Positions 5,063 through 56,773 of a stretch of DNA of 64,000 nt are shown in pieces. The notes under the pieces were generated by a model. The model saw only the letters and a list, made by a program, of their open reading frames with translations. It did not search any database and had not been told where the DNA came from. The translations under genes and the position numbers were made by a program. The DNA is taken from positions 960,001-1,024,000 of the forward strand of contig CM000153.2 of assembly GCA_000004695.1 (NCBI GenBank). The letters run 5' to 3'. The stretch comes from Dictyostelium discoideum. Lineage: Eukaryota. How positions within the stretch are numbered: position 1 is the stretch's first letter; every line of letters begins with the position of its first letter.

Positions 5063-5800
5063 TTATTTACAACAACTTGGACCAGTTGAAGTTGGTTGTG
5101 GTTGTTTATTGAGATCGCCTGGTTGAATTGTACCTTCAATTGGTTGATTTCTTCTAACATCATTCTTTAAGATATGATCAACCAAGAAACGTGCTGCTTT
5201 TTCAATATTCATATTTTCTTTAGCACTAGTTTCGAACCAACCAATGAAACCATTATCTTTACAATATTTATCCATATCGTTTGCAGTCTTGATGAATGCA
5301 TCTTTACCTAAATCACATTTGTTTGCTAATAAAACTACTGGAATTGGTTTTTCATCTGCACCATAAGTTACTTTAGAATCAATATCTGCTTTCCATTTAG
5401 CAACTGCTTCAAATGTACTCATTCTAGTAACATCAAATGTAATCATTGCTCCAACTGCTTCTTTATAATAAACTCTTGTCATTGATCCAAATCTAATAAA
5501 TAATAATAAATAATCAAAAATTAATAACAAATAAATAAATTTGAATATAATATTAATAAATAAATAAATACCTTTCTTGACCTGCAATATCCCATAATTG
5601 TAATCTAACTTCGGTTTTTGGATCCCAATTAATCACTTTTAATGCAAAATCTACACCAATGGTTGATTTATAATGCATAGAGAATATATTATGAACAAAT
5701 CTTTTAATAATTGAAGTTTTACCAGTACCAATATCACCAACAACTAAAATTTTATATAAATACTCATTATATCCTTCATCATCAGCTGGGTTGTTTGACT
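5063..5800 (-). CDS. Rab32/Rab38-family small GTPase. Two exons resolved (~5790-5573 and 5494-5063). An upstream ATG-containing exon is required but not located with certainty.
   Basis: Exon A encodes '[76 protein letters not shown]'. Exon B encodes '[41 protein letters not shown]...[20 protein letters not shown]...SCCK', matching Rab32 almost motif for motif. Exon A is preceded by the acceptor 'ttatttag' and an in-frame TAG, so the first exon lies further upstream. Confidence 0.8.
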
Positions 5801-8948: not shown

Positions 8949-11451
8949 TTATCTTGAAGCAACACCAACACTTGAAGTGTTAATACAATTTTGACAGGTT
9001 GGAGTTTGATTTTTATTAATTGTAAAAGGTGTGTTGTGTCTAATTACAACATGACAAGTTGAACATTTGAAACATTTTGGATGATAGTTTTGACCCATTG
9101 CCAACATTGATACACCCAAAATTACACCATGACAATAAGCACATTTATCAACTCTACCACTGTGTAAACAAGTATTACAACAATAGTTACTTGAAGTTGA
9201 TGTCATTTGTTCTCTACTAAAATTATTTCCTCTAATAACTTCCTTACAAGATGAACATTTAAAACATTTATTATGATATTTCTCTTTATCAATTACAATA
9301 ATATCTATAGACATAATAATTAAAAAAAAATAAAAAAAAAATTAAATTAAATTAATATGTGTGTGTTAAATATTTAATAAAATAATAATAATATATTATA
9401 TAATTACCATCTTCTTCAGTTAAAAATTTATAACATGAACAACAGAAACCTAATGAATCTCTTTTTGGTTTTGCTAAATCATTTAAAACGATTTGACATT
9501 TTGCACAAAAGATTTTATTTGTTGATGGTTCAGTGAAATATGGATCAACTATTGATGAGAAACAATTTGAACATTTGAAACATTCTGGATGATAGGTCTC
9601 TTGTAAATGATTTATTAATGTATTACCAAATATTTCAAGTTTACATCTTTTACAATTTTTACCTGATGAAACAATTGTTGTAATTGTTTGTGTGTATACT
9701 TTTTCTTTTGGTCTTTGTGGTGGTAAACTATCAACTTTAATTTGTTGTTGTTGTTGTTGATATGGTTGATGTTGATGATGATGATGTTGATGTGAATGAT
9801 GTTGATGTGAATGATGTTGATGTGAATGATGTTGATTTTGATTTTGATTTTGATGATAATTTGGATCATCAGTAATAAATGTTTTTGAATAACTTTTAAT
9901 ACCATCTCTACCATTATTATTATGTAAATTATGACTATGGTGAGTTGAATCTTCAATTATTAAATTATTATTATTATTATTATTATTTTGAATTGATGAT
10001 TGGGGTGGTTTGTATTGTGTGGTAGTTGTTTTTGTTGTTTCTTGAACATGTTGTTGAACAATTGGTTCATCAGAATGAGAAGGATGCTGATGTTGATGCT
10101 GATGATGAGAATTTTTGATATTATGAGAAACATGATGTTGAATTGGAGAATCAATATGCTTATTTTCAATATGTTGGTGTTGAATACTAATTGGTTGAGA
10201 ATGAGTATGGTGGTGATGTTGGAGAGGTTGATGTTGGTGTTGATTATGATCAAATGAGTGAGGTTGAGAGTGAGAATGTTGATGATGATGGTGATGTGAT
10301 GGAGTAGCATTATGTGGGTGAACAACAGTTGAAAGTGAATGTTGTTGTTGTTGTTGTGGTTGCACTGTAGTTGTTGGTTGTGAGTGTGCATGTGAATGGG
10401 AGTGAGATTGGTGTGGATGAGAATGAGGGTGTTGTGGATGAGAATGAGGATGTTGTGGATGAGAATGGGAATGGGAATGAGAATGTGATTGATGTGGGTG
10501 AGAGTGTTCAAGTGGATTTGGATGAGCATGGTGATCATTTTCTTTTAATTTTGCTGTATGAATATCTTCAACAATCATTGTTCCTGATGGATTTGAAATT
10601 GATAAATCAGAACCAGCTTGAACACCTTTATCAACATATTTAACTTTTGCTTGTTCTTCTTCAGCATCATCATCATGTTCTTTTTGTTGTTGATGGTGAT
10701 GTTCTTTTTTACCAAATGTAAAATCAACATCTAAATGAAGACCACCTTTCTTTGATTTTGATTTATCATCAGGGTTTTCATTGTCATTATCAATAACAAC
10801 AGCAGCGCCACCACCACCAACTTCATGATTATGAATATGGTGACCTTGTCTATGTTTTAATTGTTTTTGTTGTTTTTTCTTTTCTTTTCTAGCTTTACGT
10901 TTTCTTTCATGGTCAGATTCATCTTCACTACTTGATGATGAATCATGTACAGAATCGTCTTCACTATCTGAAGAATCTGACGATGAATTATTATTATCAT
11001 CATTTTGATGGTCATGACCATGTAGATGGTTGTCATTATCTTTATTTGGTAAAGTTTTTGTTGTACTTGTGGTGGTTGTAGTAGTGGTTGTAGTAGTTGG
11101 TTGAGTTGATTTTCCAACATTTGGTGTTGGTTGATATTGATTTAAATCTAATTGAGATTTAGTTCTTGGTGAATTTGATCTATGATCTCCAATTACAACA
11201 GGTTCACTTGGATCAGATGATTGACTATTATTTCCATAAGCAATATTCCCTGGTTTTAAATTATTATTATTATTAGAGGAATAAATTGCAACTGATGGTT
11301 TACTTGGTTGATATGAATCATTTACTTCATTACATTTGTTAATTTTAATATCAACTTGTTCATCTAAATTTTCACCACCTCCAATATGTGGTTGCTTTTT
11401 ATTTGAATTATTTTGGTTATTTTCACCATTATTATTATTATTATAATTATA

Positions 11452-49390: not shown

Positions 49391-50770
49391 ATGTTTTCAG
49401 GAGCATTGAATTATATGAAGGGTTTAGTAGGTACCAACGAAAACTTACAAGTCGAAGAAAGTGGTGATAATAAAGGTGATATTGAACCAGAGCAAAGAAA
49501 GGGTTTACTCAAACAATTATCATCATATGTTGGTAAAGATATTACATCTTTAATCTCATTACCAGTTTGGATTTTCGAACCAGTATCATTCTTACAAGTT
49601 ATGTCCGAACCATTACAATATAACGCTTTATTATCTAAAGCCTCAAAACAAGATAGCGAATTTTTATGTTTAGCTTATTTAGCTGCCTTCAATTGTGCAT
49701 TATATAGTACTGCTGTTAGAACAAGTAAGTTTTATTAAATATTATTAATTATATTTTGAAAAATATAATAGTAAAATAAAATAAAGAAAAAAAAAAAAAA
49801 AAAAAGAAATACTAAAAAATTTTTTTTTTTTTCTTTTTTATTTCTTTTTTTCTTTTTATTTTTATTTTTTTTTTTTTTTTTAAAAAAAAAAATAGGAAAA
49901 CCATTTAATCCAATTTTAGGTGAAACCTTTGAAATTGTTGATAAAAAAGGTGAATTTAGATTCCTTGCAGAACAAGTTAGTCATCACCCACCAATTGGTG
50001 TATCAGAGACAATTTCAGAAGATTATACTCTTCAATTAGAAACATTATTGAAATCCAAATTCTATGGTAACTCATCAGAGGTTGAAATTGATGGTACCAA
50101 TCATTTCTTCAATAAGAAGACCAACCACCATTACACATGGAATCATTTGGTAACTTGTTGTCATAACATTATCATTGGTTCATTATGGTTGGATCATTAT
50201 GGTGATTTAGTCATCGAAAATCACACTACCGGTAGCAAGGCAGTACTCAAATTTGCTAAATCTGGTTGGTTAGGTGCCGGTCGTTATGGTGTCACTGGTG
50301 AAATTGTGGATTGTGAAGGTGATGTTAGATACAGAATCACTGGTAAATGGAATGAATCCATTCAATTATTCCAAGTCATGGATAATGGTTCATCCTCTAC
50401 CACTTCCACTTGTCTTTGGGAAGCCAGCAAAGAACCAATCAATAATAAATTTTTATTCCCAAGATGGGTCGAAGAAAACGTTATTGATCTCAACGATGAA
50501 TACAAAAAGATATTACCAGTCACCGATTCTCGTCTTAGAGCAGATCGTATCGCTTTAGAAGAAGGTAACTTGGATGTCGCAGCTAAAGAAAAACACAACT
50601 TGGAAGAGAAGCAAAGAGAAGACAAAAGACAAAGAGTTGCTGAAAACAAAGAATGGGAAACTGCTCAATTTAAAAAAGTCGATGATGCTAAATTTGGTTA
50701 CAGATGGAATTATTGTGGTAATTATTGGGAAGAAAGAGAAGAAAGAGTTAAAGCAGCAGCTTCAAATTAA
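49391..50770 (+). CDS. Oxysterol-binding protein (OSBP)-related protein, short ORD-only type, 2 exons (49391-49724, 49896-50770)
   Basis: The OSBP fingerprint 'EQVSHHPPIGVSE' is present, with flanking 'PFNPILGETFEIVDKKGEFRFLAEQ'. Exon 1 ends '...STAVRT' at a GTAAGT donor. The acceptor is 'aaaaaaaaaatag'. Confidence 0.85.
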
Positions 50771-51157
50771 TAAAAACAATAATAATTATAATATTTTAAT
50801 CGTAAACAATTTATTCATTCAATTTCCGCTGTTATTAATTAATATATAAATAAAAAAAAAAAAAAAAAACAAAAAAATAAAAAATAATAAAAAACATTTT
50901 AAAAAAAAAAAAAAAATAGTGAATATCTCCATTCATAACTTTTTATTAAAATTTTAAATGCTTTAAGATTTTTCCAAACTAAGATCAAATAAGTTAAATA
51001 TTTAAATACTTCACAAAATTAAAATTATCTGATTTTATTAATCGGCAAATAAACAAATCCTTTAAAATAAAAAAGATTTATTTTCAAGAAGAAAGTGGAG
51101 TTTTTTTTTTCTTTTTATTTAGTTGATATTTACAAATACTATAATACATTTAGAATT

Positions 51158-51491
51158 TTAATTGCAACCACAATCTGGATGTAAAATTGGAGTTGTAATA
51201 TTGCCAACAGTGTTTAATACTGAACCAACAATAACACCAGTACCAAATAAAACTCCTCCAACAAGATTTCCAACTGTATTTCCTAATGCCGGACTACAAG
51301 AACAACATTGAATTGAGTTTAATGATTGAAGTGATGATGATGAAAATGAGGCAATATTGGATTTTGATGATGATTTAATATTTCCAATTGATGAGATTGA
51401 GGCTAAATAATTAAATTGATTTTAGTATTTAGGTAAAAAATAAATTAAAAATTTAAAATTAAATTTAAATGTAATTACCTAAGATTGTCAT
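51158..51491 (-). CDS. hssA/2C/7E-family small Ser/Gly-rich protein with C-terminal CGC. 2 exons (51491-51479, 51402-51158).
   Basis: Exon 1 is 'ATGACAATCTTAG|gtaattac'. Exon 2 starts after 'ttatttag'. The protein is '[85 protein letters not shown]'. It is a near-identical inverted paralogue of 52257-52584. Confidence 0.7.
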
Positions 51492-51954
51492 TTTTTAGGT
51501 TTAATTGTTTTAGTAAGAAAAAAAAATAAAAAAAAAAAAAAATGTTTTTAAAGGTAAAGTATTCACTTTAAAAAAAAAATTATAAAATTTTTTATATATA
51601 ATATTAAATCAATTTTTTTTTAATTTATTACAAATTATTTGAAAAATAGTTTTGGAATTTTAGATAATGGATGATATCATTTTAGTGATAAAATAATAAA
51701 TAAAGATTTATTTATTTAATTTTAACTATATGAACGGTTTATAAAAAATAGTTCAAATTAATCTTTCAAATAGAGATTTTAAAAATGGCCTTTAATCTTA
51801 TTTCCCTACAAATATAAAAATATTATCGGTCAAAAAAAAAATATTAAATAGCTATATCTTTTTTTTTCTTTTATTGAAATGTTATATTAAAAAAATTAAT
51901 CAATTTTTTTTATTATTTTTTGTATAGAAAACAAATTTATATGTTTTCCAATCT

Positions 51955-51990
<36 letters not shown>

Positions 51991-52256
51991 AGTAACAACC
52001 CCTTCTAACACAGATTTTTTATTAAATAAGTAAGATTAACACAGATGAAAAAACTAATATAGATATCTAAAATTCAAATTTGGATTTTACTAAATTTAAA
52101 TTTTTTTTAATAATTTTCACATTTTACTCTTTTTTAAATATAATAATAATTATATGTTTCAAAATTAGTATAAAAAAATTTTTATTTTCCAATCATTATC
52201 AAATATTAGCCAACTCTTTAAAGCATAAATAGAAAATTGAAAAAAAAAAAAAAAAA

Positions 52257-52584
52257 ATGACAATTTTAGGTAACTATATATATATTTTATAATTCTTTTA
52301 TTTAATAATTTCTAATTTCTTTAAATATTATTTTAGCCTCAATCTCATCAATTGGAAATATTAAATCATCATCAAAATCCAATATTGCCTCATCATCATC
52401 ATCATCATCAAGTCAATCATTAAACTCAATTCAATGTTGTTCTTGTAGTCTGGCATTAGGAAATACAGTTGGAAATCTTGTTGGAGGAGTTTTATTTGGT
52501 ACTGGTGTTATTGTTGGTTCAGTATTAAACACTGTTGGCAATATTACAACTCCAATTCTACATCCAGATTGTGGTTGCAACTAA
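52257..52584 (+). CDS. hssA/2C/7E-family small Ser/Gly-rich protein, paralogue of 51158-51491. 2 exons (52257-52269, 52337-52584).
   Basis: Exon 1 is 'ATGACAATTTTAG|gtaactat'. The acceptor is 'tattttag'. The protein is '[86 protein letters not shown]'. Confidence 0.7.
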
Positions 52585-52993
52585 AATCGAAAATAATATA
52601 TATATTTAATTAAATTAATTCAATATATAATTATTAAATACATAAAAGTGTATAAAAAAAAAAAAAAAAAAAAAAATTTAAAAAAATAAAATAATAATAT
52701 AAATTTTATATTATTAATAAATGTTTCTTTTTTAAATATAAAAATATAATATTATTGTGATTAAATTTAACAGAATAAATAATAAAATAATTAAAGAATT
52801 TGTTTTTGATTTTTAGGTTTTAAAATAGAAAAATTATTTCTATCTTTTTTTTTTTTTGGTTTCTTTTTTTATTATAATCATTATGACAATATTAATTTTT
52901 ATATATATATGAGTATTAAAAGTTTTTAATTGGGTAATATTATAATATTATAATAAAATTGAAATCCAATGATAGAAAATATTAATACTATCA

Positions 52994-56773
<3,780 letters not shown>

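Follow-up and report, generated by a model that had tools for sequence, protein, structure and literature searches.

The hssA/2C/7E genes are restricted to Group 4 dictyostelids (PMC8067170) and share a hallmark structure, found in 89 of 96 genes, in which a 13-nt exon-1 ORF and one short intron precede an exon 2 carrying the remainder of the coding sequence (PMC2257962). The described systems closest to the locus studied here are the sigN Group 1/Group 2 pairs of chromosome 2, which belong to the same family, have the same gene structure and are likewise opposite-orientation neighbours with a common intergenic region (PMC2257962). The sigN Group 1/2 proteins, of 85–89 aa, share ~95% identity inside each group (Vicente et al., 2008, PMC2257962), and these groups have already been proposed to derive from two genes arranged in tandem with opposite orientations (PMC2257962). 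Small Ser/Gly/Cys-rich peptides with a 13-bp first exon also characterize the HssA/B-like family, including its cup-cell-specific clade (Kin et al., 2018, PMC6198379). Unlike the sigN groups, which lie in a 7–10 kb cluster, the sigN101/sigN102 pair is isolated on chromosome 4, and the published table gives 60–62% identity to SigN1 for sigN101/sigN102 (PMC2257962). Neither gene conversion, nor inversion, nor presence/absence variation is described in that paper (PMC2257962). The two genes go without mention in the main text of the cited family papers, and our literature search found nothing relevant on sigN101 or the DDB identifiers.

Inverted paralogues remain near-identical by intrachromosomal gene conversion in the divergent Hsp70Aa/Ab pair of Drosophila and in the arms of the human Y palindromes, and a crossover between the arms of inverted duplicates inverts the spacer. 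The sigN101/sigN102 tract differs from both in being only ~250 bp long and in ending at the exon-2 boundaries, so that promoters, first exons, and introns escape homogenization. A family cluster on GL870976.1 (GCA_000190715.1, which we take to be D. purpureum) is likewise arranged head to head, with exon-1 motifs 590–610 bp apart, and its two outermost genes, inverted relative to each other, have one and the same protein product. It differs in lying at another locus, not syntenic with osbH, and in having six members in a nested inverted arrangement.

Structure and Identity of the Gene Pair

The window (the whole 64 kb stretch of DNA that we analysed) contains two two-exon mini-genes located between osbH and a large low-complexity gene. 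They stand head to head, 765 bp from ATG to ATG and thus less than 1 kb apart, and every feature that the first-pass annotation had described for such an inverted pair was found where it had been placed. The features are as follows, in window positions.

51158-51491, minus strand: gene A, sigN101-type, 85 aa by spliced translation
51491..51479, minus strand: gene A exon-1 ORF, 13 nt, ATGACAATCTTAG
51478..51403, minus strand: gene A intron, 76 nt, phase 1, GTAATT..TTTAG, 90.8% A+T
51402..51158, minus strand: gene A exon 2, 245 nt including the TAA stop, arm of the homogenized inverted repeat
52257-52584, plus strand: gene B, sigN102-type, 86 aa by spliced translation
52257..52269, plus strand: gene B exon-1 ORF, 13 nt, ATGACAATTTTAG
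52270..52336, plus strand: gene B intron, 67 nt, phase 1, GTAACT..TTTAG, 91% A+T
52337..52584, plus strand: gene B exon 2, 248 nt including the TAA stop, second arm of the homogenized inverted repeat

The proposed 13-nt first exon and phase-1 intron were recovered in both genes, whose reading frame is intact solely when this exon-1 ORF is joined to exon 2 across a GT..AG intron; the phase follows from the 13 nt, which make four codons plus one base. Across the 64 kb window we counted two occurrences of the motif formed by exon 1 and the donor site, ATGACAATYTTAGGTAA, where 0.14 would be expected by chance, and tblastn found no further family member in the window. Splicing of the two genes is predicted from the intact reading frame, from the published cDNA evidence for the family, and from the 13-nt exon being conserved in six further genomes.

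The two copies of exon 2 align with 238 matches, 7 mismatches, and one 3-nt indel, i.e., 97.1% identity with a dS of 0.056, which agrees with the >95% identity and the few differences announced beforehand. A repeat finder delimited the inverted arms as 202 nt at 95% and 76 nt at 97%. The differences between A and B consist of the length of the Ser run, SF/SS and P/L replacements, and two synonymous changes. Both proteins carry the Ser run, CCSCS, a Gly/Val-rich stretch, and PDCGCN at the end, and contain 17–20 Ser, 10 Gly, 5 Cys, 2 Lys, and no Arg. The N-terminal half of the peptide is rich in Ser, a hydrophobic segment is rich in Gly and Val, and the C-terminal CGCN is invariant. AlphaFold run on a five-sequence alignment gave no confident fold (mean pLDDT 42, pTM 0.16).

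The assignment to the hssA/2C/7E family was correct. Both proteins match PF05710 (HssA/B-related) end to end, over profile positions 1–90 of 90, with scores of 85.9 bits for gene A and 81.4 bits for gene B (cutoff 21.4), and both genes combine this match with the hallmark gene structure and a Ser/Gly/Cys-rich, Lys/Arg-poor product of <120 aa. From what is known of the family, this product would be a developmentally induced small peptide, possibly secreted, matrix- or membrane-associated, and redundant.

The pair is sigN101/sigN102, the match being one of sizes, chromosome, and adjacent identifiers, not of sequence. Additional file 1 of PMC2257962 lists sigN101 (DDB0185642) on chromosome 4 as 13//244 with an intron of 75 and 85 aa, and sigN102 (DDB0185643), on the same chromosome, as 13//247 with an intron of 66 and 86 aa. 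Lengths in that file are end minus start (the 89 aa of sigN1 require 257 nt, for which the file gives 256), and our measured values for exon 2, intron, and protein were 245/76/85 in gene A and 248/67/86 in gene B. The flanking ORF is identical over 239/239 positions to D. discoideum AX4 osbH (OSB8_DICDI), and the pair proteins of a D. discoideum chromosome assembly are identical to those of the window. The PF05710 match, the sigN101/sigN102 sizes, and the AX4 osbH gene at the flank together indicate that the feature was already known.

With the exon-2 translation as query, an exhaustive HMMER search of 1.84 billion representative proteins found relatives in Dictyostelium only; just three hits were genuine, a further one was a spurious repeat protein, and the yield was of little help for a family alignment. 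A word-indexed protein search with the spliced protein retrieved a single relative, in D. dimigraforme, and the exact sequences of the pair proteins were absent from that collection. A conserved block 3′ of gene B, with ATGACAATATTA, was considered as a third member and rejected: it belongs to the neighbouring gene, as its terminal exon and 3′ UTR. Elsewhere in the window, Rfam identified two Dictyostelium Class I RNA genes.

Distribution and Selective Constraint

Using osbH as synteny anchor, we identified the locus in nine additional Dictyostelium genomes and obtained one D. purpureum contig, with one assembly per strain in all comparisons. Counting the window, seven genomes have an intact head-to-head pair downstream of osbH; they represent five named taxa (D. 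discoideum, D. cf. discoideum, D. citrinum, D. firmibasis, and D. dimigraforme). The osbH-linked site of the D. purpureum contig lacks the pair. The 13-nt exon-1 ORF was kept in all six other genomes, and both ORFs were intact, with the 13-nt exon 1 and GT..AG introns, in 6/7 genomes with the pair. In D. dimigraforme (GCA_054859025.1), both copies are frame-disrupted as assembled, by two 1-nt indels that are homopolymer-length changes and may be assembly errors. Two strains beyond these seven carry deletion alleles: gene A of D. discoideum FIR is truncated, its 5′ part being deleted, and D. citrinum FIV lacks the pair altogether. The D. dimigraforme frame disruption, the FIR truncation, and the FIV loss point to a selective constraint that is weak or lineage-dependent, and the locus could be dispensable in some strains.

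The same observations would fit a pair that is decaying or effectively non-functional in D. discoideum, made up of homogenized pseudogenes or of unexpressed ORFs, as would the absence of a phenotype after deletion of 13 sigN genes (PMC2257962) and the poor annotation of the pair, missing or mis-modelled in 7/8 recent assemblies examined. We nevertheless consider such decay quite improbable: beside the ORFs and splice structure preserved in six of the seven genomes, dN/dS is 0.25–0.37, variable sites are enriched at third codon positions (33/19/53), and promoter elements, including an invariant GTATAAA, are kept across species. Invariant positions make up 45 of the 92 protein columns, and no variation across species was seen in the N-terminal, VGNLVGGV, and CGCN motifs.

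Exon 2 might also act mainly as RNA, hence its uniform nucleotide sequence. A frame-shifted hssA has been reported whose transcript is itself active (Kin et al.), and the frame-disrupted D. dimigraforme copies keep an identical 3′ 165 nt of exon 2. However, exon 2 folds no better than its shuffles (z = 0.14 and −0.43), Rfam and tRNA scans gave no match in or near the pair, substitutions are enriched at third positions with dN/dS <0.4, and the D. dimigraforme indels could be artefactual; we find an action at the RNA level very improbable.

Exon 2 Groups by Genome, Flanking Regions by Gene Type

Within genomes, exon 2 of A and B was 91.5–99.2% identical, against an orthologous mean of 83.3%. In the NJ tree of exon 2, A grouped with B in 6/6 genomes compared, whereas the trees of the 250 bp upstream and of the introns grouped the sequences by A or B type; these trees rest on short sequences, and for D. 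firmibasis, the most distant species, there is noise in the AT-rich non-coding alignments. Exon 2 site patterns over 21 genome pairs comprised 653 sites grouping paralogues, 12 grouping orthologues, and 7 of the third pattern. An indirect comparison of two D. discoideum strains gave 5 paralogue-grouping sites vs 1, and strain FIW has T/R in both copies where the window has N/H.

Outside exon 2 the similarity between A and B collapsed ~5–7 nt from both exon-2 boundaries in 7/7 genomes. Introns, promoters, and 3′ flanks could not be aligned between A and B (z no greater than 0.5), whereas the non-coding parts of A and of B each aligned with their counterpart in other species (z = 5.9, 5.5, 4.2). 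In particular, intron A compared with intron B gave a z of 0.5 and resembled the A-type introns of other genomes, whereas intron B gave a z of 4.2 with the orthologous D. dimigraforme intron and was 97% identical to intron B of strain FIW.

In D. dimigraforme, dS between A and B is 0 from codon 35 to the end and 0.85 in codons 1–34, a split that places the edge of a conversion tract inside exon 2, near codon 34. Since exon 2 groups by genome while promoters and introns group by type, the duplication is old, with exon 2 homogenized by continuing, exon-confined gene conversion.

The first-pass annotation had left two explanations for the likeness of the copies, a recent duplication or gene conversion. 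The former, a recent inverted duplication that would make conversion unnecessary, draws on the 97.1% identity and low dS of exon 2 in the window; it is practically untenable, since the non-coding parts that cannot be aligned between A and B match counterparts in other species, the pair with its A-type and B-type promoters is found in all five named taxa, and lineage-specific substitutions are common to both copies in every genome (the 653 vs 12 sites). Gene conversion, in contrast, is strongly supported by these site patterns and by the orthologous A- and B-type flanks. Equally hard to credit is very strong purifying selection acting on an old duplicate at the nucleotide or protein level, with no exchange of sequence, which would account for the dN/dS below 1 and the invariant motifs but cannot give both copies the same lineage-specific changes, synonymous ones included, such as the T/R of FIW against the N/H of the window, nor a dS of 0.47–0.60 across species (the values against D. 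dimigraforme) vs 0–0.06 within a genome in the converted tract.

Organization of the Intergenic Region

Permissive blastn of the AT-rich intergenic DNA returned noise and was replaced by windowed identity with shuffles and by multi-species alignments. We thus obtained four sets of candidate regulatory elements.

51506..51596, minus strand: gene A core-promoter region, TATAAA at -105 from the ATG, TTTAAAAA at about -60
51631..51684, minus strand: A-type conserved upstream element, AAAATGATATCATCCATTATCTAAAATTCCAAAACTATTTTTCAAATAATTTG in gene orientation, ~140-190 bp upstream of the ATG
51996..52046, plus strand: B-type distal elements, C-rich box CAACCCCTTC and two copies of TAACACAGAT
52168..52216, plus strand: gene B core promoter, GTATAAA 52168-52174, oligo-T run, AATCATTATCAAATATT 52191-52207, CAACTC 52211-52216

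On the gene A side, TATAAA and TTTAAAAA are each followed by long oligo-T runs, and either is a candidate for the functional TATA box. The footprint of the A-type element against D. dimigraforme comprised 9 matching windows, compared with a mean of 0.6 and a maximum of 4 in the shuffles, and this element is conserved in 7 sequences, one of which is the distal copy in D. citrinum FIU. On the gene B side, GTATAAA was invariant in 8 sequences. The distal elements at 51996..52046 form the sole G/C island of the intergenic region, and the copies of TAACACAGAT, at 52006 and 52037, are the only two in the window. At the corresponding position D. dimigraforme has GGTGTGT and ACCCACC, which are GBF-type boxes by the definition of PMC2257962; strict GBF heptamers were absent from the intergenic region of the window. 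Unlike that of sigN Group 2, the sigN101/102 intergenic region has neither a palindromic structure nor paired GBF boxes.

The upstream halves of A and B were dissimilar (z = −2), and no shared or symmetric regulatory elements were found, the conserved elements being specific to gene A or to gene B. From its conservation pattern, the 765-bp region is best described as two different promoter modules, conserved independently and each with its own footprints and its own TATA-like box followed by an oligo-T run. Of the bidirectional promoter of ~760 bp initially suggested for the pair, the shared intergenic region is confirmed; a single shared promoter and co-regulation gain no support from two dissimilar and separately conserved modules.

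An Inverted Central Segment in D. citrinum

In D. citrinum FIU, gene A with 190 bp of promoter A and gene B with 240 bp of promoter B aligned reversed, and the exon-1 variants, introns, and footprints were swapped between the two sides. Recombination between the inverted exon copies, with a crossover as its outcome, has very probably flipped the central segment, with its promoters, first exons, and introns, in this strain.

Discussion

We consider it very probable that the sigN101/sigN102 pair of D. discoideum (AX4-type) chromosome 4 is an old inverted duplication in which exon 2 has been homogenized while the A and B promoters remained separate. The inverted duplication took place before the divergence of the five taxa that carry the pair. 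Since then, recombination between the inverted copies of exon 2 (gene conversion) has very probably homogenized this exon alone, repeatedly and in each genome, and exon 1, introns, promoters, and 3′ flanks have evolved as separate A-type and B-type lineages. The locus would thus correspond to one protein, with predicted expression from two different promoter modules. We regard as unlikely the further suggestion that such a module of one peptide and two promoters is actively kept uniform by selection, or alternatively that the transcript itself is active; in the latter case, the continued homogenization of the frame-disrupted D. dimigraforme copies would also be explained.

As a genome feature, the locus is ordinary: a catalogued pair of a well-described, lineage-restricted family in a reference genome. 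The sole new point is that its coding exons are near-identical by gene conversion while the promoters evolve separately, and our literature search on gene conversion and concerted evolution in Dictyostelium found nothing on the hssA/2C/7E family. The added value lies in a compact case of concerted evolution, confined to a 245-bp coding exon and accompanied by deletion alleles and a spacer inversion, which can all be followed in ten closely related genomes. This case bears on how a large redundant family keeps near-identical paralogues and on why knockouts lack a phenotype. Automatic gene callers are defeated by the 13-nt first exon, and family counts in comparative studies are therefore likely underestimates.

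On the same unlikely reading of a module kept uniform by selection, exon-confined conversion, with an occasional flip that swaps the cassettes of promoter, exon 1, and intron between the exon-2 copies, would be a general mechanism. The ~100-member hssA/2C/7E family could then diversify its regulation while pairs keep identical products.

Gene pair and its identity

The first-pass annotation had described a head-to-head pair of near-identical hssA/2C/7E-type mini-genes with 13-nt first exons, and every element of that description was borne out by the rebuilt spliced ORFs, the motif count, the inverted arms and the exon-2 alignment. Gene A lies on the minus strand and gene B on the plus strand, and their elements are as follows.

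Elements of the gene pair
51491-51479, minus: gene A exon-1 ORF, ATGACAATCTTAG
51478-51403, minus: gene A intron, 76 nt, GT..AG
51402-51158, minus: gene A exon 2, rebuilt spliced ORF of 85 aa
52257-52269, plus: gene B exon-1 ORF, ATGACAATTTTAG
52270-52336, plus: gene B intron, 67 nt
52337-52584, plus: gene B exon 2, rebuilt spliced ORF of 86 aa

Both ORFs are intact and spliceable in the window (23% G+C), with 765 bp from the gene A ATG to the gene B ATG. The exon-1-plus-donor motif was found at two sites in 64 kb, those of genes A and B only, against 0.14 expected, and tblastn recovered no further family member in the window. The repeat finder returned inverted arms of 202 nt at 95% and 76 nt at 97%, and the second exons, claimed to be more than 95% identical, reached 97.1% on alignment (238 matches, 7 mismatches and one 3-nt indel). 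The two proteins start with the same 12 residues and share the same layout, with a Ser run, CCSCS, a Gly/Val-rich stretch and PDCGCN at the C-terminus. Their proposed membership of the hssA/sigN (2C/7E) family was confirmed, since both cover PF05710 over its full length (81.4 and 85.9 bits, cutoff 21.4); Pfam lists this domain as “Coiled”, the D. giganteum preprint as “HssA/B-related domain”.

Vicente et al. (2008; PMC2257962) described 96 genes of this kind in D. discoideum. Additional file 1 of that study lists, under adjacent identifiers, sigN101 (DDB0185642, chromosome 4, 13//244, intron 75, 85 aa) and sigN102 (DDB0185643, chromosome 4, 13//247, intron 66, 86 aa). We measured exon 2/intron/protein sizes of 245/76/85 for gene A and 248/67/86 for gene B. 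The lengths in the file correspond to end minus start, as is seen from sigN1, whose 89 aa require 257 nt where the file gives 256; with this counting the sizes fit, and the window pair is thus sigN101/sigN102, already catalogued in the reference species and matched by dimensions, chromosome and adjacent identifiers. The pair proteins encoded by the chromosome-level D. discoideum assembly (L006) are identical to those of the window. Published work already covers the genes, their family, the unusual exon structure and the head-to-head layout.

Just upstream of the pair, the ORF 50048-50770 corresponds to an oxysterol-binding-protein C-terminus, identical at 239/239 positions to OSB8_DICDI, the osbH product of D. 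discoideum AX4. A minus-strand neighbour gene has a short terminal exon (~52994-53110, ending RVKIEREEYSRLHAELIAIKGILNDFQSKKMESLKQVK*), separated from the 935-aa ORF 53242-56049 by an intron consisting largely of an (ATT)n repeat. Its 3' UTR (52820-52993) is unusually conserved with D. dimigraforme for non-coding DNA and contains ATGACAATATTA, a mimic of the family's exon 1. The window also carries two genes for Dictyostelium Class I RNA (Rfam RF01414), one on each strand and separated by ~1.3 kb, at 281-338 (-; 55.6 bits) and 1592-1649 (+; 43.1 bits; gathering score 41.5).

Distribution of the pair in Dictyostelium

A large protein database yielded one close relative only, from D. dimigraforme, whose contig (L001, GCA_054859025.1) is syntenic, with the same order of LMBR1, OSBP, family gene and large minus-strand gene, and includes a further copy, unannotated and facing the first head to head (9453-9780 and 10395-10727). 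Using osbH as an anchor, we listed the members of its cluster and retrieved their contigs, obtaining a comparison set of ten genomes. The intact head-to-head pair was recovered in the window, D. discoideum L006 and FIW, D. cf. discoideum FIY and FIZ, D. citrinum FIU, D. firmibasis and D. dimigraforme (where the frames are disrupted as assembled). It is partly deleted in D. discoideum FIR and almost wholly deleted in D. citrinum FIV. D. purpureum lacks the pair at this site, its OSBP gene being followed by the next gene after only 273 bp.

Gene conversion between the inverted copies

In the window, the likeness between A and B is limited to exon 2, the 13-nt exon 1 and the GTAA donor, the introns and both flanks being dissimilar; similarity is lost within ~5-7 nt of both exon-2 boundaries in 7/7 genomes with the full pair. 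Exon 2 of A and B is 91.5-99.2% identical within a genome, against a mean of 83.3% between orthologous copies. In the exon-2 neighbour-joining tree, A joined the B of its own genome in all six genomes compared, whereas the trees of the upstream 250 nt (from the ATG) and of the introns set the A type apart from the B type across species. Over 21 genome pairs taken together, 653 informative sites grouped paralogues, 12 grouped orthologues and 7 followed the third pattern; the two D. discoideum strains alone gave 5 paralogue-grouping sites versus 1.

A recent duplication had first been offered as one explanation of this likeness, and the Nei-Gojobori dS, computed as had been proposed, was indeed only 0.056 within the window pair. 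It is nevertheless excluded by the separation of the two types in the upstream and intron trees, and by score tests against shuffled sequence, in which upstream regions (A vs A', z = 5.9; B vs B', z = 5.5) and the B introns (B vs B', z = 4.2) stood out while all paralogous comparisons remained at z <= 0.5. Purifying selection alone is likewise excluded, dS being 0.056 within the pair versus 0.47-0.60 to D. dimigraforme. The duplication thus predates the species compared. We consider the other early suggestion, that the copies are kept alike by gene conversion, as established at the level of sequence comparison: exon 2 has been homogenised repeatedly and recently between the inverted copies. 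In D. dimigraforme, A-B dS is 0 from codon 35 to the end and 0.85 in codons 1-34, and this jump therefore places a tract edge inside exon 2.

Two promoter modules

The intergenic region (13.9% G+C) had been described as a bidirectional promoter. It is common to both genes over its 765 bp, but its two halves are unlike each other (z = -2) and separately conserved; although shared, it contains two distinct, independently conserved promoter modules with the following elements.

Promoter elements
Gene A, -105: TATAAA, followed by oligo-T
Gene A, ~-60: TTTAAAAA, followed by oligo-T
Gene A, 51631-51684: conserved block
Gene B, 51996-52005: C-rich box
Gene B, 52168-52174: GTATAAA, invariant in eight sequences
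Gene B, 52191-52207: AATCATTATCAAATATT
Gene B, 52211-52216: CAACTC
Gene B: TAACACAGAT, two copies, the only two in the window

Ahead of the C-rich box, D. citrinum, D. firmibasis and D. dimigraforme have a GTGTGTGTGTT-type box. Strict GBF-type heptamers occur at the C-rich-box site in D. dimigraforme, and none was found in the window's intergenic region. The latter differs from the palindromic arrangement of sigN Group 2 (PMC2257962).

Structural variants at the locus

In D. citrinum FIU (GCA_054859145.1, L009 5650-7020), the central segment, comprising the two promoters, first exons and introns, has the opposite orientation to its counterpart in D. discoideum, D. cf. discoideum, D. firmibasis and D. 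dimigraforme. The copy nearer osbH has an exon 1 (ATGACAATTTTAG), an intron and promoter elements of B type, those of the distal copy are of A type, and with stringent blastn window positions 51154-51683 and 52016-52639 align reversed, well into each promoter. Such an arrangement would be expected from crossing-over between the inverted arms of exon 2, and it alters the products almost not at all because the arms are near-identical.

In D. discoideum FIR (GCA_054859385.1, L013 5800-5990), 51347-51513 is gone, so that gene A has lost exon 1, the intron and ~56 nt from the start of exon 2; what remains of it is 5'-truncated, the deletion abuts a poly(A) run and gene B is intact. In D. citrinum FIV (GCA_054859325.1, L011 5621-6224), the pair is replaced by ~540 bp of sequence that is unrelated and less rich in A+T, followed by the pair's sole remainder, 65 nt of the exon-2 3' end. 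Both D. dimigraforme copies are frame-disrupted as assembled, each through a 1-nt homopolymer-length change: the B copy's exon 1 is 14 nt long (T5 versus T4 in the other genomes) and the A copy is one G short in exon 2. No frame breaks were found in ~2.7 kb of neighbouring coding sequence on the same contig. The database protein from this locus (P0001, KAN0047311.1) has its frame rescued by an implausible upstream exon.

Gene conversion, inversion and presence/absence variation are standard consequences of inverted repeats, seen likewise in Drosophila Hsp70 pairs and Y-chromosome palindromes. We found no account of any of the three in the literature on this family.

Protein constraint and possible role

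Constraint acts at the protein level: dN/dS is 0.25-0.37, variable sites are distributed 33/19/53 over the codon positions and 45/92 protein columns are invariant, among them the N-terminal motif, VGNLVGGV and the CGCN at the C-terminus. By contrast, the Cys motif in the centre takes several forms (CCSCS, CCSCG, CGGCGSG, CGCDG, SCG). The peptide has almost no charged residues and contains a 19-residue hydrophobic Gly/Val segment (mean Kyte-Doolittle hydropathy 1.72); AlphaFold gave no confident fold for it (pLDDT 42), and no unusual RNA folding of exon 2 was detected.

In the literature, genes of this family are switched on during development in prestalk or cup cells, and their products may be secreted or matrix-associated. 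Antibodies against Group 2 proteins cause mounds to disaggregate, and deletion of 13 genes gave no phenotype (PMC2257962). A frame-shifted hssA still suppresses the statA partial mutant (PMC6198379). The FIR and FIV deletion alleles fit a redundant, dispensable role. We suggest that the locus may supply one peptide from two regulatory modules, gene conversion possibly keeping that product uniform.

Annotation of the family

The pair is wholly unannotated in six recent Dictyostelium assemblies (our entries L004, L006, L009, L010, L012 and L013), and both genes are called only in D. firmibasis (L008). A six-member family cluster in GCA_000190715.1 (GL870976.1, L002 2789-8141) shows the same inverted pairing as the window pair, with head-to-head exon-1 motifs at 5411(-)/6001(+) and 7191(-)/7801(+), and its outer two genes, in inverted orientation, have the same protein product. 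In this cluster the annotated model for P0004, 2.1 kb long, combines the first exon of one gene with the second exon of a different one, and P0002 (207 aa; GCA_054859235.1, L003 6001-6975) fuses a family member with ~120 unrelated downstream residues and is without the C-terminal CGC motif. The 13-nt first exon evidently defeats gene callers, and the family counts used in comparative genomics are therefore probably underestimates.
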